NCBI GenBank assembly: GCA_021149145.1
Contig: GCA_021149145.1_4322.1
DNA length: 34,803 bases
Strand: one strand, 5' to 3'
Source: a phage
The translations under genes and the position numbers were made by a program. The stretch's first letter is position 1. Every line of letters starts with the position of its first letter. The notes beneath the pieces were generated by a model. It searched no databases. It saw only the letters and a program-made list of their open reading frames with translations, and was not told where the DNA came from. Of this stretch, positions 3,212 to 34,139 are shown in pieces.

Positions 3212-3233
3212 AAAATACACAAAAAAAACCTCC
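3212..3233 (-). terminator. Rho-independent terminator between decoration-like and capsid genes
   Basis: CCTCC-CGAA-GGAGG hairpin preceded on plus strand by A8. Confidence 0.7.
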
Positions 3234-3263
3234 CGAAGGAGGCTTGTTTAATTAATGATAATC

Positions 3264-7329: not shown

Positions 7330-7374
7330 CTATAAGCCACCCTTGGCGGCGCGTCTTTAGCAAAACGTGCTATT
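7330..7374 (-). promoter_or_regulatory. Motif-type promoter for the moron ORF
   Basis: Minus strand AATAGCACGTTTTGCTAAA, 22-23 nt, TTATAG/TATAGT, leader ...CGCAAACGAGAGGAG; the element's TAG is the large terminase stop codon. Confidence 0.4.
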
Positions 7375-10117: not shown

Positions 10118-10193
10118 TGGTGTTCCGCACTGGACTCGAACCAGTAACTAAGACTTAGGAGGTCTTTGCGTTATCCTGTTACGCCAGCAGAAC
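10118..10193 (-). tRNA. tRNA-Arg (anticodon CCU)
   Basis: 76-nt cloverleaf folded by hand: acceptor GTTCTGC/GCGGAAC (one G-U), D-arm GCGT-AACAGGATA-ACGC, anticodon arm AAGAC-CUCCUAA-GTCTT, T-arm ACTGG-TTCGAGT-CCAGT, discriminator A, encoded CCA. Confidence 0.8.
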
Positions 10194-10579: not shown

Positions 10580-10785
10580 TAAAACTCCTCAGTGATAAGC
10601 ATCTTGCCACAATATTTGCACTCGTAGAACGCACATGTTTCACCTATTGATACACTTGGTTTTGTTGACTCGTGGTATGCAGAGCTTATCGCCTTAATGT
10701 CAAAATCGTGAATGATTGATGTGAACACGTAAATGTAATGATGTTTGTGATTATTGTCGTTATCACTCATAAAGGCTATTCCCAT
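10579..10785 (-). CDS. Hypothetical protein (68 aa) with C-terminal CxxC
   Basis: ORF MGIAFMSD...; YECKYCGKM motif; 5' end lies inside a 29-bp direct repeat. Confidence 0.45.
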   Translation of the reverse strand: MGIAFMSDNDNNHKHHYIYVFTSIIHDFDIKAISSAYHESTKPSVSIGETCAFYECKYCGKMLITEEF

Positions 10786-10789
10786 TCTC
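10761..10789. repeat. 29-bp perfect direct repeat, copy 1 (TATCACTCATAAAGGCTATTCCCATTCTC)
   Basis: Identical to 10886-10914; on the minus strand it carries the ATG and first 8 codons (MGIAFMSD). Confidence 0.85.
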
Positions 10790-10793
10790 TAAC

Positions 10794-10910
10794 CTAATTC
10801 AATGTAAATATGAAGAAAATCATCCCAATTGCCGTAGCTATAGCCAATCCGATGGCGATCAGAGTTAGTACTAAATCAATGATAATATCACTCATAAAGG
10901 CTATTCCCAT
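10794..10910 (-). CDS. Possible small membrane protein (38 aa)
   Basis: Hand-translated: MGIAFMSDIIIDLVLTLIAIGLAIATAIGMIFFIFTLN; shares its first 8 codons with the downstream gene via the 29-bp repeat. Confidence 0.3.
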   Translation of the reverse strand: MGIAFMSDIIIDLVLTLIAIGLAIATAIGMIFFIFTLN

Positions 10911-10914
10911 TCTC
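10886..10914. repeat. 29-bp perfect direct repeat, copy 2
   Basis: Identical to 10761-10789; here it also encodes the C-terminus ...ENGNSLYE of the 78-aa ORF in another frame. Confidence 0.85.
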
Positions 10915-12643: not shown

Positions 12644-13165
12644 CTATTTAGCCTCCTTAATCATTTCTTGGTATGCGTTAATCATTGATACTGCACCCTT
12701 AAGTTCATCACCTTCAAGACCAGCGACGCTTGGTGATAGTTTCAACAATCGAGCCTTGAACCTTTCAATGGTAGCCGCCTCCTTCTCTTGCTCTGCTTTG
12801 CTTCTTGAGCCGGATTTTACAGCGCCAGGAACCAGGCTAAGTGATGCGCAGTATGTCTCACTCTCGCCATCAAAGTCGGTAAAACTAAGTGAGAACCTTG
12901 AGCGCACGTCAGCCGCCTTAATCTCAGGCATTCGGCTTACGGTGTTTGAAACGTATGACGCTTTTAGTTTTGGCATGTGGTATTCACCACCAGGTAGAAC
13001 CTCCTGACCACTTAGCGATACGAACGTCTCACGACTCATGCCGAAGTATTGACGAGCAATCATGGTCACAGGGACTGTGCACACTTTGTCTTCTGACTTG
13101 AGCGCCTGACTCGCCATGTATCGAATGATTTCACCCAAACTTACTGCTTCTTTATGTTCTGACAT
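12644..13165 (-). CDS. Hypothetical protein (173 aa), first leftward gene from the AT-rich control region
   Basis: ORF with ATG at 13165; no motif recognised. Confidence 0.5.
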   Translation of the reverse strand: MSEHKEAVSLGEIIRYMASQALKSEDKVCTVPVTMIARQYFGMSRETFVSLSGQEVLPGGEYHMPKLKASYVSNTVSRMPEIKAADVRSRFSLSFTDFDGESETYCASLSLVPGAVKSGSRSKAEQEKEAATIERFKARLLKLSPSVAGLEGDELKGAVSMINAYQEMIKEAK

Positions 13166-13286
13166 ATTCGTTACTCCTGATTGGTTGCCCTTCGTTAAGA
13201 TGAAACCATGGTATCATGAATATACGCGTTATCAAGTGTTATGTTGTGTTTATATCTGCATTGGTTACGCTTTTTGACCTCTCAGC

Positions 13287-13300
13287 CCAGCTATAGCTGG
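13287..13300. repeat. 14-bp perfect palindrome CCAGCTATAGCTGG
   Basis: Read directly; the AGCTATAGCT core recurs at 33072-33081 in the paralogous control region. Confidence 0.8.
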
Positions 13301-13440
13301 TGTAATTACCCTGTGTAAGATTTTACGCGGATTCGCCGGGGGTATGCATATGTATCTATATAGATAAAATTAGTAGTTTTCATAGAAAAACTATCGACCC
13401 ATCCATACGACCAATCTACACCATATACATACATATATAC

Positions 13441-13526
13441 AATAATAATAATAATATAGTAAAAGGTTGATATATATAGATATTATTATGTAACCATTGC
13501 GTAATCTAGCGTGGTAGGCGTATATG
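13441..13526. repeat. AT-rich control element, copy A (paralog of 33236-33320)
   Basis: (AAT)5 + identical 29-mer AGTAAAAGGTTGATATATATAGATATTAT (13458-13486) + GCGTA-type repeats at ~10-bp spacing (13499, 13509, 13518). Confidence 0.75.
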
Positions 13527-13764
13527 ATTCTTCGGAAGCGCACCTCATATACACACCATAACTTCGATAACGTGTATATCCAAATTGGCTCAGCAAGAAT
13601 CAAAATCAACTTGTATGGTAGTTCATCCACCATTCATTCACCCCACATCAATCATTGCAAATCCCGCAACAATCAAAAACATCATTGCATTCGATGCAAT
13701 ATTGTTATATGTGCAATAGTAAGATTAATCATTGCAATATCTGCAACAATAAATAAATCCAACT

Positions 13765-22823: not shown

Positions 22824-24533
22824 TCAATCCTCCATCGTAAATGATTTGTTGGCGATAATATCTTGAGACTTCTGGTTTTTACGGTGTGTGATTCTCAATG
22901 GGGCACGGAATAGATGTGCATTTGTCATAATCATTCTAGCATTACGCAATCTGCCAATTCTGAATGCCTCATTCCTGTTATCGATGTGTGTTGAGCAGAA
23001 AGCCTTCCATTTAACAGAGCAAACGCGATGGTCTGATTCAGGGAAGAATGTTTCATAAGCTCGGAATCTGTCACCACTGTGAGCCATAACCTCATATGAA
23101 GCAATAATCCCTGACTGGTTCTTTGTTAACCCAATCTTGAAGTCATAAACTCGCAACCAGTCCCCCTTACGATACATTTTTCCTGATAACTTAGCATTCG
23201 GGTCTATGAGCATCTCACCACAGCATCTGCAATTCTTAGCTGCAATATCATTCTTCTCACCGCATCCTTTCTTGATGATAGCTTTGGTCTGTGGGTCCGC
23301 CATATCTTCACACAGTATAAACTGAAAGAAGTGCTCGCAACGCTTACCGTCAATTACATTATTACAACGCCGTGCGAACGGAGAGTTCTCATAAGAACAT
23401 GCCGGGCATACCCTAGGTTCATCACCTCCTTTCCTTGATGACTTAAACTTCTGGTCCTGAACTTCTTCTATAATTGGGTCAAAGTAAAGCTCTGCCATAT
23501 CGTCAAGCGTTCCGGCGAAATCGAGAACAACATGGTCTTCTTTTACCATCCCTGAATCCTTGTGTTTTTTCTTAAGAATTCGCATACCACGACCAAGCAA
23601 CTGAATGAGTAGAGTAATGCTACCAACCTTCCTCAGGATAATGCTTGTATCCCACGGGGGGCAGTTTACGCCAGTTGTGAGGCAACCAATCTGAAATATG
23701 AACTTATATTCTCCGTTGGCTGCCTTCTCAAGTATCTCTCTACGCTTCTTCTCACCAGTGGAGTTGGTAACTATCGCCCAAGTAACACCTTCTGGAAGTG
23801 CGGCTGCCGCCTCCTCGCAATGCCGTTTGCCAGCGCAAGTTACCAATGCAGCATTCCTTGTTTCCATAAACTTAGCAGCAAATCTCATTATCTTTTGTGT
23901 CATCGTTTGGTTTTCGTGAATCTTTGCAGCCATCGCATCCATTTCTTTCTTGCTGAAGTCCTTAACCCCATCACTTCCATCAGGAGTGAACTCACTAAGG
24001 TCGTAGCCCAAATCACCAACTTCACCGTAGACAGTAGGAACAACGAACCCCAAGTCAACAAGGTAGCTGGTTGGCACTTGCATTACAGTTTTGCGCCAGA
24101 ATCCACGGACATTTGGGTTACTAACTACAATGTGGTCGTTGTTACGGTACGGGCTACCAGTTAACCCAAAGATACGAAGTTCGCGACCGTACTTCTCCCT
24201 GCATCGACGCTTCATTTCGGTAATGATTAACGTGTATTGCGCGCGACCAGTGCCAAGAAGCCCGGTATTCACACCATCCTTAAAGACCATCTCACCATTC
24301 TTCGTGCTCATCTGCTCGAATGTTTCCTCATTCTCTTCAGCTTCTACGATATCCATATGGTCCACCATGTGGCAATTATGTGCCACGACCCCGTCAGCAA
24401 TGAAATTATGGTGCTCAGGCATCTCTATATCCCAAACAAGTTCCTTGCCAATTGGTGAGATGTCTTTAATTTTGCTTGATTTTGTATTCCACGCCATTTT
24501 CCATGTGCTTACTAATTCTCTTAAAAAACTCAT
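22824..24533 (-). CDS. Helicase, C-terminal part: 53-aa intein C-terminal segment (blocks F/G) fused to C-extein
   Basis: Starts with ATG right after an in-frame stop; ...ELVWDIEMPEHHNFIADGVVAHN|CHMVDHMD...; C-extein carries helicase motif VI-like QLLGRGMR and a C-terminal Cys cluster. Confidence 0.7.
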   Translation of the reverse strand: MSFLRELVSTWKMAWNTKSSKIKDISPIGKELVWDIEMPEHHNFIADGVVAHNCHMVDHMDIVEAEENEETFEQMSTKNGEMVFKDGVNTGLLGTGRAQYTLIITEMKRRCREKYGRELRIFGLTGSPYRNNDHIVVSNPNVRGFWRKTVMQVPTSYLVDLGFVVPTVYGEVGDLGYDLSEFTPDGSDGVKDFSKKEMDAMAAKIHENQTMTQKIMRFAAKFMETRNAALVTCAGKRHCEEAAAALPEGVTWAIVTNSTGEKKRREILEKAANGEYKFIFQIGCLTTGVNCPPWDTSIILRKVGSITLLIQLLGRGMRILKKKHKDSGMVKEDHVVLDFAGTLDDMAELYFDPIIEEVQDQKFKSSRKGGDEPRVCPACSYENSPFARRCNNVIDGKRCEHFFQFILCEDMADPQTKAIIKKGCGEKNDIAAKNCRCCGEMLIDPNAKLSGKMYRKGDWLRVYDFKIGLTKNQSGIIASYEVMAHSGDRFRAYETFFPESDHRVCSVKWKAFCSTHIDNRNEAFRIGRLRNARMIMTNAHLFRAPLRITHRKNQKSQDIIANKSFTMED

Positions 24534-25514
24534 CTTGTGCCGACCTCGTTGTTATTGATACTGAGTAAAGCTCTCTCTTTTTCTTGCCGCCAATATAGCT
24601 TCTAACCTTAACTCCGTCATTAGCAATAAATGCTATTAGCGCATCAACTACTGATTGAACTTCACTCCTGCTAAATGATTCGGTGTGGATTTCTACAACC
24701 CTCTTCCCTGAGCTTACAGTGCAATGACCATCATCACCAAAGTAAGCAGCCCAACCAACTGGATCAAGCTCTCTGCATATCTTTCCAATATCGTAACCAT
24801 CCTTAGAATTTCCGTACTTATCAGCATATGAATCCAGAACTTTCGTACATGATGTTGATACGCAAAACCAGTTGTCGCCAAATCCAGGGTTTTTCTTCTC
24901 CCTGTATCTAGGGTTTAGTTTTGCAAACCTTTCAACCTTGCTTAGTGCGTGCTCCTTATTTCCAATATTCCAAGATAGCCTATGCGTTCCTTTTTCTGTA
25001 TTTTTAATCAAGCAACCATCACCAGCCATTGCCGCAAGAATGTTTTGATGTAAAAAGTCATCAACCTCCATTGATGGGTTGACGGTTGAATTATGATGCC
25101 CCGTTCTGTAATCCAAATAGAAATCGAAAGGGTTCTTAAGAAGTACGCCTAACCCCTTGCTTGAATGCGGCATAACTTTTTCACCACAGCCACACTTGCA
25201 CGCAGGAGCTTTTTCGTAAATTTGTCCTGCGAGCCGTCTAGCGACAGATTCATCCCAATACGAAGTTTTCCCGCTCCTACCCAGCAGCCGTTCGAATAAA
25301 GTTTGTGTGTACTCGTGCATTTTATTTCCTCTCCGCTTTCTAATTTAATTGATGATACATGTCTTACACCATTAGTAAAAACTCTTTTTGGCTTATGATA
25401 GAAGTAATCACCAGTGCTTTCGTTTATGCATTTTATTTTATGATTGATAAGGTCTTCGCTATCAATCCTCATCATCCCTGAATCGGTGGTTATCATCGTG
25501 TCTCCAGTTAAGCA
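24375..25514 (-). mobile_element. Intein (1140 nt, 380 codons) in helicase motif II, with LAGLIDADG endonuclease encoded in a shifted frame
   Basis: Block A CLTGDTMITT directly after ...VIAIDE; block B KCTSTHKLY; blocks F/G VWDIEMPEHHNFIADGVVAHN then C; joined exteins read DE-CH. The two splicing domains share one frame; the endonuclease ORF is in another. Confidence 0.75.
24466..25320 (-). CDS. LAGLIDADG homing endonuclease (intein-internal or free-standing)
   Basis: 284-codon ORF with its own ATG, two LAGLIDADG-like motifs (ILAAMAGDGCL, AAYFGDDGHC); overlaps the flanking ORFs by 172 and 68 nt. Confidence 0.65.
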   Translation of the reverse strand: MHEYTQTLFERLLGRSGKTSYWDESVARRLAGQIYEKAPACKCGCGEKVMPHSSKGLGVLLKNPFDFYLDYRTGHHNSTVNPSMEVDDFLHQNILAAMAGDGCLIKNTEKGTHRLSWNIGNKEHALSKVERFAKLNPRYREKKNPGFGDNWFCVSTSCTKVLDSYADKYGNSKDGYDIGKICRELDPVGWAAYFGDDGHCTVSSGKRVVEIHTESFSRSEVQSVVDALIAFIANDGVKVRSYIGGKKKRELYSVSITTRSAQDEFFKRISKHMENGVEYKIKQN

Positions 25515-25958
25515 CTCATCTATCGCGATAACAGCAGGAGCATAGTCACCAAGCCCCTTAAACAAGCCGTTAGCAGCCGTTCCCTCACTAGCCACTATGG
25601 TTGGATAGTAAACTGATTTAACGTTAAGGCCAGCGCAATAGACGCTATTACGGATGCCGAAATTACGAAGTTCCTCTGCGTTCTGGCTGACAATCTCTGA
25701 CTGGCGAGATAGGACCATGTAAGGAAGGCCAAGCTGTTCCATTCGTTTCCCAATCATGGCGAGAATAATCGTCTTGCCAGCCGAAACCGATAGGTCTGCT
25801 ATGAATGGCGCTTCGTACTTGCCAATAGCCTTTCCGATTGCGTCAAATGTCACGCACTGGAATGGGTATGGTGTGATTTCTCCGAACTGATAATCATTTT
25901 GAATCTGCTTGATTTTATCTTGGTCAAAGTTTGCTACTAAGCGTTCTACTGGAAGCAT
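25149..25958 (-). CDS. Helicase, N-terminal part: N-extein (148 aa, Walker A SVSAGKT, Walker B IAIDE) fused to 121-aa intein N-terminal segment
   Basis: ORF ends at TAG after intein blocks A and B; same frame as the C-terminal helicase ORF. Confidence 0.7.
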   Translation of the reverse strand: MLPVERLVANFDQDKIKQIQNDYQFGEITPYPFQCVTFDAIGKAIGKYEAPFIADLSVSAGKTIILAMIGKRMEQLGLPYMVLSRQSEIVSQNAEELRNFGIRNSVYCAGLNVKSVYYPTIVASEGTAANGLFKGLGDYAPAVIAIDECLTGDTMITTDSGMMRIDSEDLINHKIKCINESTGDYFYHKPKRVFTNGVRHVSSIKLESGEEIKCTSTHKLYSNGCWVGAGKLRIGMNLSLDGSQDKFTKKLLRASVAVVKKLCRIQARG

Positions 25959-26054: not shown

Positions 26055-26528
26055 ATGTGTAAAATTGACAAGCGAACTATTAACGGCAATAACGGGACCG
26101 TCCGCACGCAAGACAAGAAGCAACGCAAGCGACCTTCAGGCTACTACGTATTGAAAGATGAAGTAAAGGCTGGTCTACGCGCGCGTCTGGAAATGATTCT
26201 TGATTTCTACGGCACGAAAGCCAATATCGCCAAGCAGTTAAATGTATCTCACCAGACTGTAGAGCAATGGTTTAATCGCGGGATGATTTCGGCTCGAGGG
26301 GCTCAGAGAGCGCATAATGCGTACAAGCGAAATAAGGAAGGGTTCCGAGCTACATTCTGCCGACCAGACCTGCAATTCGACGGTAACGGAAAGCCGCTAA
26401 CACTTCGATGCAAGAAACGCCATATGCTTCGCGTAGTTACCGAGGCAGAACTAGCAATAAAACCACCCTGTCGACCGTGGCGCAAGAATAAGATTGCTAA
26501 CGAAGCAGCACGAAAAGCTAAAGGGTAA
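26055..26528 (+). CDS. Putative HTH DNA-binding protein (157 aa)
   Basis: Basic N-terminus; HTH-like segment TKANIAKQLNVSHQTVEQWFNRGMIS; first rightward gene from a divergent region. Confidence 0.45.
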   Translation: MCKIDKRTINGNNGTVRTQDKKQRKRPSGYYVLKDEVKAGLRARLEMILDFYGTKANIAKQLNVSHQTVEQWFNRGMISARGAQRAHNAYKRNKEGFRATFCRPDLQFDGNGKPLTLRCKKRHMLRVVTEAELAIKPPCRPWRKNKIANEAARKAKG

Positions 26529-26579: not shown

Positions 26580-27059
26580 ATGAACTGGCATGATTATTTT
26601 TACTATGTAGATGGCAAATTGCATTGGAAGATTAGCACTGCAAGACGTGTTAAGGTTGGCGATGAGTGCAACTCACTATCTACATCTGGCTATTACAAAG
26701 TGTCTGTTAATGGCTTTAGGACTTATGTACATAGAGTTGTGTGGGAGATGTTTAATGGATAACTTCAAAATGGCGACTACATTGATCATATAAACCATAA
26801 CAAATTAGATAACAGAATAGAAAACCTAAGAGTAACAACAAATCAAGGTAACTCAAGAAATTGCAAGCTTAGCGTTTTATCAACAACTGGTTATTGTGGA
26901 GTGGCAAAGCTAAATCACGGAAAATTTAAGGCTCACATCACGGTTGACGGCAAGCAGCTACACCTTGGTAACTTCGATACTCCAGAACGGGCGTATAAAG
27001 TAAGAATTGAAGCAGAGAGAAAATACAACTTTCACGAAAATAACGGGTTAAGCAAATGA
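26580..27059 (+). pseudogene. HNH-AP2-type homing endonuclease interrupted by an in-frame TAA (26760-26762)
   Basis: GGAGAGAAG RBS; MNWHDYFYYVDGKLHWK...HRVVWEMFNG, TAA, then same frame LQNGDYIDHINHNKLDNRIENLRVTTNQGNSRN (HNH) and an AP2-like tail; stop overlaps primase ATG (ATGA). Confidence 0.6.
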
Positions 27060-27979
27060 ATTACGATAAGAATGAAGTTATACCTAAGATGGCCGGATTG
27101 TGGAAATCATTTTATGTAAAGGAACTTGGTTGGAATGATAGACACATAAGTAAGAAGCACGGACCATGCCCATGCTGCTTTGGCACTGACAGATTCAGAT
27201 TTACCGACGAAATAGGCAGTGAAAAAGGAAATGGCGCGGCAGTTTGTTCGAAATGCGGAAGTGACTCCGGTATAGGATGGGTCATGAAGTGCACCGGATT
27301 GTCCTTCGCCGATTCAGTAAATTTGCTTGGTGACTGGCTGAACTTAACACCAATTGAGGTTATAGTTAAAGCAAACAAGCAAGCCTCGAGAACTAAGCGT
27401 TACAAAATGGGCGCTCAAGTCGACCATGAGAAAGTCCTGGAGGTTATGGAGAGAACTAAGAGAGTGGAATCGAGTCCACTCACGACATACGAGGGTATTT
27501 ATGACGCGTTTGGTTTTGATGTTGGTATAGCTAAAAATGGTTCAATGATTCACGCAATCCCTTGTTCGATGGTTTATGAAGATGGGCTTAGTGATGAGTT
27601 CTGTAACGTAATGTTTATCGATGAGGATTCAAATGTTAAGTTCCTTGCTGGTGATTACACTCGTGATTCTGTTTCCGTTATTGGTTCTAAGCAGGATGAT
27701 AGTTATACTTATGTTGTTGACAATTATATTGATGGCATGCGTGTTCACCTTGCTACTGGTGGGCGCGAAGTGTTTGTTGCTTTCTCCTGTTACAATATGG
27801 AGATGGTTATCCACCGCGACAAGTCAAGGAAGTTCAGAATTGCTTGCCGTGATTCTGATAGCGATATACTCGCCGTTGCTGACGATAGGGGTGTTGATGT
27901 TGTAGTTCCTAATGACGGTGAGTCATTTAAAACAGGCATACGAAAGAAAGTGTACAAAGCAAACGACTTGCTAAACTAG
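27056..27979 (+). CDS. DNA primase (zinc ribbon plus TOPRIM-like region)
   Basis: 307 aa; N-terminal Cys4 ribbon GPCPCCFGTDRFRF...AVCSKCG typical of primase zinc-binding domains; acidic DxD-like clusters later (CRDSDSDILAVADDRG). Confidence 0.55.
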   Translation: MNYDKNEVIPKMAGLWKSFYVKELGWNDRHISKKHGPCPCCFGTDRFRFTDEIGSEKGNGAAVCSKCGSDSGIGWVMKCTGLSFADSVNLLGDWLNLTPIEVIVKANKQASRTKRYKMGAQVDHEKVLEVMERTKRVESSPLTTYEGIYDAFGFDVGIAKNGSMIHAIPCSMVYEDGLSDEFCNVMFIDEDSNVKFLAGDYTRDSVSVIGSKQDDSYTYVVDNYIDGMRVHLATGGREVFVAFSCYNMEMVIHRDKSRKFRIACRDSDSDILAVADDRGVDVVVPNDGESFKTGIRKKVYKANDLLN

Positions 27980-28000
27980 CCTCCTTCGGGAGGTTTTTTA
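27978..28000 (+). terminator. Rho-independent terminator after primase
   Basis: CCTCC-TTCG-GGAGG hairpin followed by TTTTTTA. Confidence 0.75.
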
Positions 28001-28064: not shown

Positions 28065-30518
28065 ATGGCAATTTATGACTTAGGAACAGCATCGCTAGCC
28101 TCAAATGGCGAGGTTACTGGCGTAGGTACTACATGGAAAGCACCTCTTACACTGATTCGTGTAGGTGCTACTATCATTTTCAAAACCAGCCCTCTGAAAA
28201 TTTACACCATCTCTGAAATCATCAGCGATACTCAGGTTAATGTTTATAATCCAAGTTCTGAAACTGTTCCCGCTGGTACTGGTTACGCAATTCTTGCTCA
28301 TGATGGAATTACTGTTCAGGGGTTGGCGCAGGATGTTGCGGAAACATTGCGTTACTACCAGTCAAAAGAGACTTCTATTGAAAGTCTACTGCAATTTATT
28401 GGTCAAGATACTTTTGATTGGCCTCGTCTTGAACAACTGGCAACTCAGTCAACTACCGGAGCTGCCGAGGCGCTTGCTAGTCAGATCTCTGCCGCTGAGA
28501 GTGCCTCTACAGCGGTAGGTGCTAGCAATAACGCACAAAATTCATATAACAGGACGGTTGCAGCAATAAATGCGGCTGGAAATACAGCGGCTGTTGCTTA
28601 CTTTGCTGATCACGGAATAGGTAGCACGACAACGCCATTTCTTACCTCTTTAGATTGGCAAACAATGCAATTTTGTTCCGGAGGTCGTTATCAGTGCACA
28701 CTTAGGGATATGTTAAACACCCCAAAAGAAATTAGTTCAATGTTTCCGGTTTCAACAACTCCTATTTGTATTGATGTTATTGCAACTAGGGGTGTTAATT
28801 CGGCTAGTGTATTAAGGTTATCTCCGTCTACTGGGTCAAACTCAAATTTTAGGATTGCAGATGTCACAATTTCTGGTGCGACTGGATCTAGGGTTTTTTA
28901 TGTAAGGGAAGCACTAAGCTTGCCTGGCGGTGATGCTGCAACTGGTGGAGCAAGCGCGTCAAGGGTTAGGGGGTTGCTTGATGTTTACTCAAAGGGTGAG
29001 GTGTTATCAATTTTAAATACAGATTCAAAAAAAAGCACATCAAGCTATGGCGGCTCAATATCTTCAGCAATAGAAACCGCTGGCGATGGCGGGTCGGTAG
29101 TTATAGGCCCGGGAACTTATGAGAGTAATAACTACTCCTTTGCTGGCAGGAACATATCAGGCTCTGGATATAATACCGTAATAAGTGTTAAACCTTTTGA
29201 AACCGGACTCACATCAACGCTATCGGTTCCGCACTGGAGGCAAAAGCATTTATCGGATTTGCAGTTTACAGGTACTGCAATACAAGGTAATAACGGCTTT
29301 CAATTCCCGGATGACCCTTATGCTGGAAGGGTTGTATTGGATAGGCTTTACTTCAATGACCTGGATGTTGGTATAAGGAAAAATGCTGGCAACATTGGAA
29401 ATACCTACAGAAACGTAAGTGTTAGAAATGCGAATTACGGGTATAGAGCAAAAGCTCATGACAAAATGCATATAGGATCGGACACTTTATACGGATACCA
29501 CTCAGATACAATCTCTCAATATTCAGTAATGCTAGATGCGACAAGCACAAGTAGCGCAACGAACCATGGCGCTGGAGGAATTGGTGGGTGGTGGATTAGG
29601 GATTCAATAATGGAGGACTCTGCTGGCGGCGGTATAAGGTTAAAGAATAAACCTGGAGATTGCCCAACATCACCTTGCGGATTGTCTAACGTATGGTTTG
29701 AAGCGATAGCAACTGGGGGAGCAGTTAACGTAGGTGAGGGAGCTGAACTCCCAAGGGTTTTGAAGCTCATCGATACGTCCGTTTTCTTTGCTGAGCATTC
29801 TTATATTAATAACATTGAGTTATCAAATTCAAACCTTGTAACTTATGGGTGCAGGTTTGATAACGCTGATGGGCGCCAAAGTTTCTCTCTTGATTCGAAC
29901 AGTATTATTTTTGCTAAGGATGCATACCTGAATGGATCTTCAACATCAAACGTTATAGTTGAGTCGCTGGTATCACAGACAGCCAAGATAACGGGTACAT
30001 CTGACTTATCTGTTAGAGGATATGTTACTAAAGGTCGAGTTTTTAATCCAGATTCCGGAACTGTTTTAGTCAGGAGGCCTTTTGGTACTGGTGGGAGCAA
30101 CTTTGGTGGAACAGCGTCGGCAAGTGAAGGTCCTGATACAAGGGGTATACACTCGCTATCATCTGGATACTACGAATTGCTTGGTGCGGCTCAGTACGAA
30201 TTGATAAATGGTGCCTTTAATATAACCGCTGGCAAATGGTATGTTTGGGGTATCTCTGCAAACAGAATTCAAGGTGGTGCTGATGGTGTTATCCGTATTT
30301 TTGGTAGAGCATCTTTAGGGCAGGTATTCACTGAGGGCGGTAAGTGGGTTCACACATTTGGAGTTGCTCAGGCTTCAGTCTCTGGCACTGCAAACCTGCA
30401 TATCAACCTTAATGGGCTACCTGGTATGGCATTAAGTCTTGCTGATTACTTCGTTGTAGAGTTCGATAACCAAAGAGACGCTTTAATATTTGCCAACTCA
30501 AGGATGGCGCTTCAATAA
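28065..30518 (+). CDS. Tailspike / tail fibre protein with probable beta-helix (depolymerase-like) domain
   Basis: 817 aa, GGAGA RBS; Gly/Ser/Thr/Asn-rich repetitive central region of the kind seen in right-handed beta-helix tailspikes; flanked by terminators. Confidence 0.55.
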   Translation: MAIYDLGTASLASNGEVTGVGTTWKAPLTLIRVGATIIFKTSPLKIYTISEIISDTQVNVYNPSSETVPAGTGYAILAHDGITVQGLAQDVAETLRYYQSKETSIESLLQFIGQDTFDWPRLEQLATQSTTGAAEALASQISAAESASTAVGASNNAQNSYNRTVAAINAAGNTAAVAYFADHGIGSTTTPFLTSLDWQTMQFCSGGRYQCTLRDMLNTPKEISSMFPVSTTPICIDVIATRGVNSASVLRLSPSTGSNSNFRIADVTISGATGSRVFYVREALSLPGGDAATGGASASRVRGLLDVYSKGEVLSILNTDSKKSTSSYGGSISSAIETAGDGGSVVIGPGTYESNNYSFAGRNISGSGYNTVISVKPFETGLTSTLSVPHWRQKHLSDLQFTGTAIQGNNGFQFPDDPYAGRVVLDRLYFNDLDVGIRKNAGNIGNTYRNVSVRNANYGYRAKAHDKMHIGSDTLYGYHSDTISQYSVMLDATSTSSATNHGAGGIGGWWIRDSIMEDSAGGGIRLKNKPGDCPTSPCGLSNVWFEAIATGGAVNVGEGAELPRVLKLIDTSVFFAEHSYINNIELSNSNLVTYGCRFDNADGRQSFSLDSNSIIFAKDAYLNGSSTSNVIVESLVSQTAKITGTSDLSVRGYVTKGRVFNPDSGTVLVRRPFGTGGSNFGGTASASEGPDTRGIHSLSSGYYELLGAAQYELINGAFNITAGKWYVWGISANRIQGGADGVIRIFGRASLGQVFTEGGKWVHTFGVAQASVSGTANLHINLNGLPGMALSLADYFVVEFDNQRDALIFANSRMALQ

Positions 30519-30548: not shown

Positions 30549-30977
<429 letters not shown>

Positions 30978-32713: not shown

Positions 32714-32908
32714 TCAATCCTTAATTTTAACAATCTTAACAGCTTTCAAATCTTCCTCAGTGAAATATCCGGTCAGAATAGATTTTGCCTCTTTCTTGCT
32801 ATCGAATCGGTCCGCTTCAGATTTGTGAACTGTATATCCAGCGGGGCCACCAAAGTAGCAATCGCCGAACAGTGCGTTGTTTTTCTCTTTAATAATGAAG
32901 TATGGCAT
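32714..32908 (-). CDS. Hypothetical protein (64 aa), first leftward gene from the second control region
   Basis: GAGAGATAGAGAA-ATG leader; ORF. Confidence 0.45.
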   Translation of the reverse strand: MPYFIIKEKNNALFGDCYFGGPAGYTVHKSEADRFDSKKEAKSILTGYFTEEDLKAVKIVKIKD

Positions 32909-33071
32909 TTCTCTATCTCTCTATTGTTGCGTGCTTTCGATTAGTTAATGATGCCGTACGCACAACGCATAGTCCAATTGGTATCACCTATTAATTAATC
33001 AAGTATACGCGTATAATTTTGTAACTACGTGTAGACATTGGCATGAGTTACGTTTTTAGCCACTTAAGCCA

Positions 33072-33081
33072 AGCTATAGCT
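33072..33081. repeat. Palindrome AGCTATAGCT (paralog of 13287-13300)
   Basis: Read directly. Confidence 0.7.
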
Positions 33082-33235
33082 CAATGTAAATAGTGAGTAT
33101 ACCGTGTATACCGATTTTAGCGGAGGGTGCATAGGTATAGGTGCTGCGCAATACTGTATAAAATCACATGGTATAAAAATTATAAGCGGAACACTCAAGA
33201 ACAGTAGTTACATGATATACAAGATATACATATAT

Positions 33236-33320
33236 AATAATAATAATAAGAGTAAAAGGTTGATATATATAGATATTATAATGTAACTATGGCGTAAACT
33301 GGCGTAACTGGGCGTATACG
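33236..33320. repeat. AT-rich control element, copy B, with three GGCGTA repeats at exact 10-bp spacing
   Basis: (AAT)4-5 + identical 29-mer (33251-33279) + GGCGTAAACT / GGCGTAACTG / GGCGTATACG at 33291, 33301, 33311. Confidence 0.75.
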
Positions 33321-33373
33321 ATTTCCAGCGGATGCATATGGTATACATGGAGTTACATTGGTTACGCGTAAAC

Positions 33374-33417
33374 AATAGCACGAATAGCTAAAACTAATAC
33401 GCAAAACCCTGTATAGT
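33374..33417 (+). promoter_or_regulatory. Motif-type promoter (element + TATAGT)
   Basis: AATAGCACGAATAGCTAAA, 21 nt, TATAGT, leader ...AAACGAGAGAGG before the ATG at 33450. Confidence 0.45.
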
Positions 33418-33449
33418 TGGTCACACAAAAAACGAGAGAGGATTTCAAA

Positions 33450-34139
33450 ATGGTTATTTGGTCTTTATTTGATGGTTCAGGGCTGGCTGTGAAAGATTGG
33501 GCTGAGGCTTGTCACGAGTGCTACTGTTTCAACTTTGATGAGTCTGACCACGGTAGTTACGGGGATTTAAATGCAAAATTTGAACATGAGAACATCACCT
33601 ACGTTAATGCCTGGATAGATGGCAACTTCGACTTTGATGTGAAGCCTGATATCATTTTAGCGTTCCCGCCGTGTACGGATTTAGCCGTGAGCGGGTCAAG
33701 GCACTTTGAGCGAAAGCGACTGGTTAACCATAACTTCCAGATTGAAGCTGCGGAAACATGTAAAGTTGCTTTTAACTTGGCTAATAAGTACGAAGTCCCA
33801 TACATGATTGAGAATCCAATCAGCGTACTGTCATCACTCTGGAGAAAGCCTAATAAGACTTTCCACCCATATGAATACGGAGGCTATTTGCCGGAAGATG
33901 ATTTACACCCGTTTTTTAGCGACCTAATAAAGCCAAAAGACGCATATCCCAAGAAGACATGCATTTGGTATGGCAATGGGTTTAAATGGCCAGAGGCGAT
34001 TCCTGTGGACGTTAACGATGGATTCTCTGACCAATACAAGAAGCTTGGTGGGAAGAGTAAGAAGACAAAGGTAATTCGCAGTCTAACTCCTCGCGGTTTT
34101 GCAAAAGCAGTCTTCATAGCAAATAGCACGAATAGATAA
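33450..34139 (+). CDS. SAM-dependent DNA methyltransferase-like protein (about 229 aa; specificity uncertain)
   Basis: Track ORF 33417 (TTG); better ATG at 33450 with GAGAGAGG RBS; FDGSG (FxGxG-like), FPPC and ENP segments; size matches the small T1 Dam class as I recall it; ends ...ANSTNR via the promoter element. Confidence 0.5.
   Translation: MVIWSLFDGSGLAVKDWAEACHECYCFNFDESDHGSYGDLNAKFEHENITYVNAWIDGNFDFDVKPDIILAFPPCTDLAVSGSRHFERKRLVNHNFQIEAAETCKVAFNLANKYEVPYMIENPISVLSSLWRKPNKTFHPYEYGGYLPEDDLHPFFSDLIKPKDAYPKKTCIWYGNGFKWPEAIPVDVNDGFSDQYKKLGGKSKKTKVIRSLTPRGFAKAVFIANSTNR

Follow-up and report, generated by a model that had tools for sequence, protein, structure and literature searches.

We identified a candidate replication origin in the non-coding DNA of a T1-like siphovirus (Drexlerviridae, Braunvirinae), for which the closest records are phages ES, AN_ECEAS, IMM-001, JeanPiccard and Rtp. 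The 34,803-nt stretch of DNA that was analysed (hereafter the window) contains an element of about 370 bp, copy B, in which short GCGTA units follow one another at 10-bp intervals next to an AT-rich tract, and a second copy of this element, copy A, is found elsewhere in the same window. The reading that we favour, with a probability of roughly 0.55, is based on analogy: the GCGTA units would be the iterons of a phage replication origin of the type known from the staphylococcal pathogenicity islands (SaPI), read by a self-loading helicase. All the evidence is computational, and comes from sequence, alignment, structure prediction and the literature. The coordinates of the features are collected in Table 1.

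The first-pass annotation of the window had described three GGCGTA repeats at 10-bp periodicity, and these are present on the + strand at 33291-33296, 33301-33306 and 33311-33316, exactly 10 bp from start to start, in a stretch that from 33281 reads ATGTAACTATGGCGTAAACTGGCGTAACTGGGCGTATACG. The AAT repeats and AT-rich segment that it placed beside them are there as well, as (AAT)5 at 33234-33248 and the 24-mer TTGATATATATAGATATTATAATG at 33260-33283, and so is the degenerate triple that it reported in copy A, made up of GCGTAA (13499), GCGTGG (13509) and GCGTAT (13518) with spacings of 10 and 9 bp. Two parts of this description had to be revised. The phasing stands, but GGCGTA is not the repeat unit, because its leading G varies among relatives, and the conserved unit is GCGTA(A/T). 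Similarly, the three units are real but are not the whole array, which includes a further unit, ATGTAAC (33281-33287), and three inverted ones (33341, 33352 and 33361). The exact phasing of the GCGTA units is far beyond chance; the pattern GCGTA-N5-GCGTA-N5-GCGTA was found in 1 of 2000 dinucleotide-preserving shuffles of the window, and a relaxed triple (three GCGT spaced by 9-11 bp) is confined to copies A and B, in Rtp as well as in the window.

An alignment of 21 copies of the element from 19 phages (Braunvirinae, Nouzillyvirus and Rogunavirinae) gives a conservation of 98% for the GCGTA columns and of 65% for the 5-nt spacers, which occur as 15 and 12 different sequences, respectively. The spacing of the triple is 10/10 in 18 of the 21 copies and 10/9 in the remaining three. 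Invariant 5-mers held in fixed phase by spacers that are free to vary are what characterises an array of protein-binding sites. The case named at the outset as damaging to such a role, that of relatives losing the triple while keeping the AT-rich core, was looked for, and in the subfamilies sampled all 21 aligned copies keep three GCGT(A/G) units about one turn apart; beyond this alignment, the B region of T1 is the one case in which the AT tract is present and GTTACA units are found in place of GCGTA units. The conservation pattern supports the suggestion of the first-pass annotation that this is an iteron-type initiator site or a cooperative regulator site, and the comparative evidence described below leans to an initiator.

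In total, the array comprises about seven units of 5-6 bp (GTAAC/GCGTA/GTATAC), four of them forward (33283-33319) and three inverted (33341-33370), each about one helical turn from the next. The forward units ATGTAAC (33281), GCGTAA (33292), GCGTAAC (33302) and GCGTATAC (33312) are spaced 11, 10 and 10 bp apart, and the inverted arm, read on the - strand, consists of GCGTAAC, TGTAAC and TGTATAC, spaced 9-10 bp; the conservation of single units in Table 1 was counted in 19 copies. Further units are located in 33021-33140 and at 33207. The latter belongs to AGTTACAT (33206-33213), which together with ATGTAACT (33281-33288) forms an inverted repeat that brackets the AT-rich tract and is paired in the consensus fold. 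The former lie in a region that includes the half-element X1, a smaller second set of such units across the tract from the main array, where ATGTAA is followed by GTATAC at 33097 and 33106 and then by GATTTTAGCGGAGGGTGCATAGGTATAGG (GATTTTAGCGGA...GGTATA). Sites of the GTWAC/GTATAC type are dense here: 33001-33400 holds 12 of them, compared with an average of 1.05 in 400 bp, and five of the eight GTATAC of the window lie in region B.

Some relatives have partly different units. The 48.8-kb genome of T1 (L022) has six TGTTACA, every one of them within the two divergent regions (29851-30377; 48675-48836 plus 1-538), and its single GCGTA pair with 10-bp spacing is located in the A region, which after its AT-rich tract reads TATAAGGCGTAATTTGGCGTAATTTTGTATACGATT and keeps GGCGTAATTTGGCGTAATTTTGTATAC. 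Three tandem GTTAATCG units, 9 bp apart, are also seen in the T1 A region. In a Shigella-phage-like copy, the units in phase are TGTATA, TGTATA, CGTAAA and CGTAGG.

The segment beside the array had been described as easily melted, and the calculated stabilities agree with this. Using nearest-neighbour energies in 60-bp windows, the two least stable segments of the whole window are the A and B tracts (13429-13489 with z 5.0, and 33222-33282 with z 4.85 and 87% A+T), the third having a z of 3.3. The counterparts of A and B are also the least stable segments of Rtp (z 5.16 and 5.03; next 3.6) and of T1 (z 5.78 and 5.51; next 3.75). Inside the tract, the columns of ATAATAATAATA are invariant in 21 of 21 copies. 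The tract also contains a match to the core consensus of the integration host factor (IHF), of which the window has three, two of them in the A and B cores, and this match is kept in Braunvirinae. Since 2.4 matches are expected by chance and the site is lost in Rogunavirinae, the possible IHF site is suggestive only.

Copy B lies in a 541-bp divergent intergenic region, flanked by a 64-aa gene on the - strand (32714-32908), which heads the RecE-Erf-SSB genes, and by a Dcm-type methyltransferase gene on the + strand (33450-34139). Copy A lies in a 673-bp divergent intergenic region, between a DUF7174 gene on the - strand (12644-13165, 173 aa) and a + strand operon that contains the MCM-like helicase gene discussed below. 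The two copies share 66% identity over 380 columns (E-value 3e-31), and the genome therefore holds one non-coding element twice. In copy A, (AAT)5 is at 13441-13455, the 24-mer TTGATATATATAGATATTATAATG recurs with one mismatch at 13467-13490, the triple follows at the positions given above, and the inverted arm is represented by ATATACA (13547) and two ATAAC (13558 and 13567). Copy B was detected in 133 phage records and copy A in 17. In Rtp, copy A is at 109-482, between rtp75 and rtp1, and copy B between rtp45 and rtp46, and in T1 both divergent regions are present. A pattern scan of IMG/VR gave three loci only, all duplicates of GenBank phages, and plasmid relatives of the element were looked for and none was found. 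A coding function of copy B was rejected, because its small open reading frames (ORFs; 33104-33286, 33208-33381 and 33276-33428) are broken by single-base indels in close relatives (+1 in IME542; -1 in CJ19 and T145P1).

The 527-aa product that the first-pass annotation had listed, as an ATPase, among the candidate binders was identified as a DUF3987 helicase, MCM-like and ending in a winged helix, and it is by analogy with characterised proteins reading such short repeats that we propose it as the reader. Its AlphaFold2 model, built with 35 homologues, has a predicted local distance difference test score (pLDDT) of 88.6 and a predicted template modelling score (pTM) of 0.86, and residues 451-521 follow a winged-helix pattern of helices (H) and strands (E): H451-468, E472-474, H475-482, H494-508, E512-515 and E518-521. 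A Foldseek search against the PDB returned MCM subunits as all of the top 50 matches, the best with an E-value of 3e-5 and with low whole-chain template modelling (TM) scores of 0.3-0.37. The DUF3987 proteins are predicted MCM-related replicative helicases that carry a winged helix-turn-helix domain at the C-terminus, often paired with a primase (PMC4889955), and helicase activity has been measured for one member (PMC11724360). In the window, the partner of the helicase is the DNA primase encoded at 27056-27979. The winged helices of the window, Rtp and T1 helicases were also compared, and their differences are compatible with those of the motifs, though not decisive.

The closest likeness is to the SaPI origins. 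SaPI Rep is an MCM-like self-loading helicase; with its C-terminal winged helix it recognises penta- or hexanucleotide iterons, of which an origin has 6-12, and it binds and melts the origin (PMC9371898). The iterons are split evenly between the two flanks of an AT-rich region, with opposite orientations, and the primase is either separate or fused (PMC9371898). The window likewise has a primase, an encoded MCM-like helicase with a winged helix, and at least six short repeats of 5-6 bp on both sides of an AT-rich tract in opposite orientations, with a repeat sequence that varies together with the initiator (see below). The differences are that the window helicase belongs to DUF3987 and not to the SaPI Rep family, and no sequence relation to Rep or to the SaPI origins is claimed; that the element is larger (370 bp), has additional conserved blocks and is present in two copies per genome; and that a SaPI origin is directly downstream of rep, whereas copy A, heading the helicase operon, precedes the helicase gene by 2 kb and copy B is 16 kb away.

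A similar arrangement is known from the core origins of the polyomavirus simian virus 40 (SV40) and the papillomaviruses, in which inverted sets of pentanucleotides (GAGGC) or hexanucleotides beside an AT-rich tract are recognised by an initiator helicase, which uses its origin-binding domain for this and forms a pair of opposed hexamers. These are eukaryotic viruses with superfamily 3 helicases and another motif geometry, and no homology is implied. Two homologous repeat-bearing cis sites, kilobases apart and served by the same initiator, are present in SPP1 (oriL/oriR) and P4 (ori/crr), and in P4 iterons of 8 bp are read by the C-terminal domain of a primase-helicase. For the primase of the window, the match is to the primase portion of these proteins (PHROG 510; T1 annotation), but the initiator families and repeat sequences of SPP1 and P4 differ from those of the window. 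Classical iteron origins (lambda ori, plasmid Rep) also have repeats beside an AT-rich unwinding element and possible assistance by IHF, but their iterons are of 17-22 bp, follow one another at about two turns and have a dedicated O or Rep initiator as their binder, while the units of the window are of 5-6 bp and one turn apart. An origin of this classical kind was set aside, as only 5-6 bp are conserved per unit, with a 10-bp spacing and freely varying spacers, and no O/Rep-type gene was seen among the window proteins scanned. A DnaA-dependent origin is not supported either: the whole window has no perfect box TTATNCACA, and boxes with one mismatch number 27 against 40.8 expected, none of them in B and one in A. 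GATC is absent from both the A and B intergenic regions.

The array with its phase and conservation, the low stability of the tract, the presence of two copies, the nature of the helicase and the parallel architectures are observed, whereas the binder and the consequences of binding are what we infer; the proposed mechanism is as follows. The DUF3987 helicase would use its C-terminal winged helix to bind the units, with each subunit taking one unit and all on one face of the DNA. Opposed helicase assemblies on either side of the AT tract would then melt the (AAT)5/TATATATA tract, and bending by IHF at TATCAACCTTTTA may assist this melting. The helicase would load itself, after which bidirectional synthesis would be started by the phage primase and the host polymerase III. 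Either both copies would be origins, or one would be an origin and the other a cis-acting enhancer.

An independent comparative test of this reading came from distant DUF3987 homologues (36-42% identity), found in five contigs. One of these (L027) ends at the relevant region and is uninformative, and each of the other four has, near the helicase-primase genes, a non-coding region of about 530-565 bp with the same design and lineage-specific short repeats (Table 1). Tandem units are spaced 8-12 bp apart in these phages. The region is directly beside the helicase-primase genes in L026 and L028, and heads their gene block 0.2-5.4 kb upstream in L023 and L024; that of L026 is downstream of the helicase gene, past a terminator-like hairpin and between co-directional genes. 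The repeats are GCGTA/GTAAC in the window family, TGTTACA and GGCGTAA in T1, CTTACA in L023, CGCCCAC in L024, and ACCCCA in L026 and L028 (helicase identities 36-62%). The repeat sequence thus appears to co-vary with the initiator across lineages, which is a correlation only, as the same pattern would be expected from a co-evolving regulator. Origin iterons would nevertheless be expected to behave in this way, with the design remaining near the helicase-primase genes and the motif differing from lineage to lineage.

Perfect trinucleotide runs, (AAT)5, (TAA)6, (AAC)11 and (TAG)4, are present inside the candidate melt tracts of unrelated lineages. They are found in the window (33234-33248 and 13441-13455) and in Rtp (L006; 255-266 and 28126-28140), with (AAT)5 in both phages, and in L024 (2333-2350), L023 (9391-9423) and L026 (11373-11384). 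Apart from these runs, the window, L024 and L026 have no perfect run of four or more units outside genes.

A broader proposal, which we put forward tentatively and with clear reservations, is that T1-like phages, and more generally the phages with DUF3987 helicases, start replication at origins of the SaPI/SV40 style. Lineage-specific iterons of 5-7 bp would load opposed rings around the tract, the trinucleotide run might be a three-base-periodic element for single-strand engagement, like the bacterial DnaA-trios, and the phage of the window would have two origins, A and B.

Several points weigh against an origin read by the helicase. The binding of the helicase to the units is proposed by analogy, and copy B, the site of the phased triple, is 16 kb from the helicase gene, so that only copy A heads the helicase operon. 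The units of copy A are partly different (GCGTGG, ATAAC), and the T1 B region has its AT tract and GTTACA units without GCGTA. The AT core is conserved base for base, beyond what melting alone needs. The GC skew merely follows gene orientation and gives no independent support. Both copies are at the starts of divergent transcription units, where early promoters and operators are expected too, and AT-rich DNA always gives promoter-like matches. Finally, small Cro/Xre-like helix-turn-helix (HTH) genes are found beside the helicase-primase genes of two or more of the distant phages, so that the units could be read by an HTH protein and the array could serve as an operator.

This last possibility is the alternative that survives best, although we consider it unlikely. 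A phage regulator, such as the 157-aa HTH protein encoded at 26055-26528, would bind the phased units cooperatively in both copies and switch the divergent early units, as in lambda OL/OR. Only two large divergent intergenic regions are at the head of early-type gene blocks, and the two copies do occupy these; like OL/OR, the copies are two homologous control regions per genome with about three neighbouring, phased sites each; inverted arrays are also typical of operators, and HTH genes accompany the helicase-primase genes in distant phages. In addition, a leftward sigma-70-like promoter, TTGATA-16-TACCAT (score 10.2, top 0.01%), is present at the left end of copy A, and its spacer contains the terminal ACGCGT palindrome of the element. 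However, the units are tandem 5-6-mers at 10 bp and not palindromes of 14-20 bp, and the HTH gene adjoins neither copy, being 7 kb away. The distance to the rightward promoter is not fixed, as the array region abuts it in B and is about 190 bp from it in A, and no conserved, correctly spaced -35/-10 pair lies over the array. For an operator, a tract of 70 bp with the lowest duplex stability in the genome would be unnecessary, and the equivalent region in L026 comes after a terminator-like hairpin and not at a divergent promoter. The HTH protein, for which the Pfam matches are weak (P22_Cro, YdaS, CI HTH), also probably has a better candidate site, namely a 21-nt repeat that is in part a palindrome (TAGCA-N5-TGCTA) and is located at about 13 promoters.

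Lambda operators are 17-bp palindromes 23-24 bp apart, which overlap defined promoters and are beside repressor genes, and none of this is seen in the window. A lambda-type operator triplet was discarded on finding tandem 5-mers, no overlapping hexamer pair of suitable spacing and the HTH gene 7 kb off. A sigma-70 reading of the core was also rejected, as scans gave only matches typical of AT-rich DNA and TTGATA without a usable -10 at 16-18 bp. The same applies to a minus-strand GTTACA-N14-TATAAT/TATATC, annotated as a promoter in AHP42, because of its 14-bp spacer; the GTTACA-to-TATAAT distance is not conserved, being 19 bp in most relatives and 20 bp in the window. The origin and operator readings are not mutually exclusive.

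Direct repeats spaced by 10 bp are also the hallmark of sites for host response regulators of the OmpR/PhoB family, and a site for one of these, for example CpxR, would tie early expression or replication of the phage to envelope stress. The tandem box of CpxR has the consensus GTAAA-N5-GTAAA, which GTAAACTGGCGTAAC in the window matches at 9 of 10 positions, and many relatives have GTAAA-N5-GTAAC. The invariant bases, however, are GCGTA, with a GC that the CpxR box does not need, and the fifth base of GTAAA varies (A, C or T; GTATC in Rogunavirinae). The array has three to four units plus an inverted set, against the two units of the usual box. Distant phages share the architecture with unrelated motifs, an indication of a phage-specified reader. 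We regard a host regulator as highly improbable.

We give equally little credence to a structured nucleic acid, in which the nested inverted motifs, as part of a transcript or of single-stranded DNA, would fold into a hairpin or cruciform and act as a priming signal, leader RNA or small RNA. The three units do pair with the three downstream inverted motifs in the RNAalifold consensus (21 pairs), GCGTA with TACGC (33363), GTAA with TTAC (33352) and GTATAC with GTATAC (33341), and a promoter-like GTTACA-N17-TATATA upstream reads into the region. However, the energy of the consensus fold amounts to no more than -7.9 kcal/mol, of which covariation contributes -0.11, and double changes are seen in 2 of the 21 pairs. 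The DNA fold of the single sequence has a z of -1.2, with 23 of 200 shuffles folding at least equally well, and the helices have 4-6 pairs separated by long, unpaired and freely varying spacers. As covariation is close to zero, the inverted units are to be regarded as conserved motifs and not as an RNA helix. In an Rfam scan of the window, only a tRNA reached the gathering thresholds, and there was no match in the element.

The least probable alternative, to which we attach hardly any weight, is a packaging (pac) site, bound by the small terminase, since although short phased repeats with an IHF site resemble P1 pac, and although the T1 and Rtp records begin about 100-540 bp from their copy A, position 1 of T1 (the start of the annotated 2.8-kb terminal repeat) lies about 200 bp from the GCGTA pair, in an insert specific to A, and two sites 20 kb apart would be at odds with a single packaging series. 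The A-specific insert has the repeats CAATCATTGCA / GCAACAATCA, shared between the T1 region and the window (13640-13760) and absent from copy B, and the pac region is probably this insert, at 13577-13760. The insert also contains the repeats ATCAATCATTGCAAATCCCGCAACAATCA and TTAATCATTGCAATATCTGCAACAATAA, 77 bp apart, and several CATTGCA.

Table 1. Coordinates of the array, its surroundings, the candidate readers and the comparable regions of distant phages (window positions unless a contig is named).
Feature	Position	Strand	Remarks
Copy A of the element	13221-13576		inside a 673-bp divergent intergenic region
Copy B of the element	33003-33372		about 370 bp, non-coding; inside a 541-bp divergent intergenic region
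Half-element X1	33083-33140	+	internal duplicate of 33281-33346, left of the AT-rich tract; from sequence and alignment
Left bracket AGTTACAT	33206-33213	+	orientation opposite to 33281-33288; GTTAC kept in 19/19 B copies
AT-rich tract, candidate DNA unwinding element	33214-33282		about 70 bp; (AAT)5 33234-33248 and conserved core GTAAAAGGTTGATATATATAGATATT
IHF-core match TATCAACCTTTTA	33253-33265	-	perfect fit to consensus WATCAANNNNTTR; A/T tract 5' on the - strand
Fourth forward unit ATGTAACT	33281-33288	+	GTAAC 33283, 11 bp before GTAA of unit 1; GTAAC kept in 17/19 copies
Phased triple	33291-33320	+	GCGTA(A/T) at 33292, 33302, 33312; third extends to GTATAC 33314-33319
Dyad centre GATTTCCAGCGGATGCATATG	33320-33340		21 bp; CCGCGG here in most relatives
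Inverted arm	33341-33370	-	GTATAC 33341-33346, GTTAC 33352-33356, GTTACGCGTA 33361-33370; kept in 18-19 of 19 copies (95-100%)
21-nt T1-family repeat CAATAGCACGAATAGCTAA	33373-33417	+	outside the array; abuts the right end of the element; TATAGT -10-like hexamer 33412-33417
Best sigma-70-like match of either intergenic region	13208-13240	-	TTGATA 13235-13230, 16-bp spacer, TACCAT 13213-13208; towards the 173-aa gene
DUF3987 MCM-like helicase, 527 aa	15432-17015	+	Pfam DUF3987 E-value 9e-41; proposed reader of the repeats, by analogy
DNA primase, Zn-ribbon, T1 gp24 homologue	27056-27979	+	PHROG 510 E-value 3e-92; Pfam Zn_Ribbon_Prim
Cro/YdaS-like HTH protein, 157 aa, T1 gp23 homologue	26055-26528	+	PHROG 2856 'transcriptional regulator' E-value 4e-81; alternative candidate reader
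Candidate origin of L028	68-632		ACCCCA/TGGGGT, 11/11 of the locus, both sides of the least stable window (z 4.3)
Candidate origin of L024	2070-2624		CGCCCA 10/12, CGCCCAC 7/7, around the (TAA)6 tract, the least stable window (z 4.6)
Candidate origin of L023	9203-9759		CTTACA 10/21 around the (AAC)11/AT-rich tract; tract not among the least stable windows of the locus
Candidate origin of L026	11076-11609		ACCCCA 6/14 around the (TAG)4/AT tract, the least stable window (z 4.3)

The 21-nt repeat mentioned above, ATAGCAC-N3-TTGCTAAA, is found in + orientation at 13764, 14577, 15357, 21150, 33373 and 34121, and in - orientation at 7353, 11177, 18805, 22386, 24616, 26022 and 31722, thus at about 13 gene starts of the window and always in the direction of transcription. 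A TATAGT/TATATT-like hexamer follows 17-18 bp on, and often then a conserved leader, CCATCGAAACGAAA. From its sequence, the partly palindromic repeat looks like a promoter with an activator site, and the segment 33373-33417 is likely the promoter of the methyltransferase gene. The repeat is known from the TLS paper as aaATAGCACnnnTTGnTAAAA, where its function is listed as an open question (PMC11447400); it occurs in the same genomes as the element, which its copy at 33373-33391 abuts, but is a different motif, of which the GCGTA array is not part.

Other features were also observed in the window. A SNF2/DEAD-type helicase gene on the - strand (22824-25958), homologous to T1 gp22 and Rtp53 (664 aa in Rtp), extends over three overlapping ORFs of 269, 284 and 569 aa, and both outer ORFs have Intein_splicing matches, which suggests the insertion of an intein or homing endonuclease, possibly with frameshifts. 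A perfect 29-nt direct repeat, TATCACTCATAAAGGCTATTCCCATTCTC, is present at 10761-10789 and 10886-10914, 125 bp apart, among small genes of the - strand. A tRNA-Arg (anticodon CCT) is encoded at 10118-10193 (-), as in other T1-like phages. A hairpin terminator-like pair, AAAAAACCTCCCGAAGGAGGCTTGTTTA and its complement, is found at 3223-3250 and 27972-27999, the two being 96% complementary and 24.7 kb apart. A CTG/TTG run (Gln codons, - strand) at 30565-30656 lies inside a 142-aa ORF (30549-30977) that is in the SSB position, by synteny with Rtp49.

The papers on the T1-family genomes of SU57 (PMC7718038) and TLS (PMC11447400) report that no origin was found, and the latter describes the absence of lambda-type iterons from that T1-like genome and lists open questions for the family. 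The element is not described in the T1-family literature that was searched, which did not include the Rtp paper and the T1 genome paper (Roberts et al. 2004), so that an earlier mention is possible.

If the array is indeed an origin read by the DUF3987 helicase, it would provide a classic phage family with its first defined origin candidate, within a known kind of origin, that of the self-loading initiator helicases. T1 belongs to the seven classic T phages, and phages related to it commonly contaminate laboratories and fermentations. A 370-bp candidate with named units and a named candidate reader makes the start of T1 replication experimentally approachable. MCM-like self-loading helicases with winged-helix iteron readers, so far characterised in staphylococcal islands, would then serve a large family of virulent coliphages, and the combination of the least stable DNA, flanking short repeats restricted to the locus and an adjoining DUF3987 helicase gene would provide a recipe for finding the origins of other phages.

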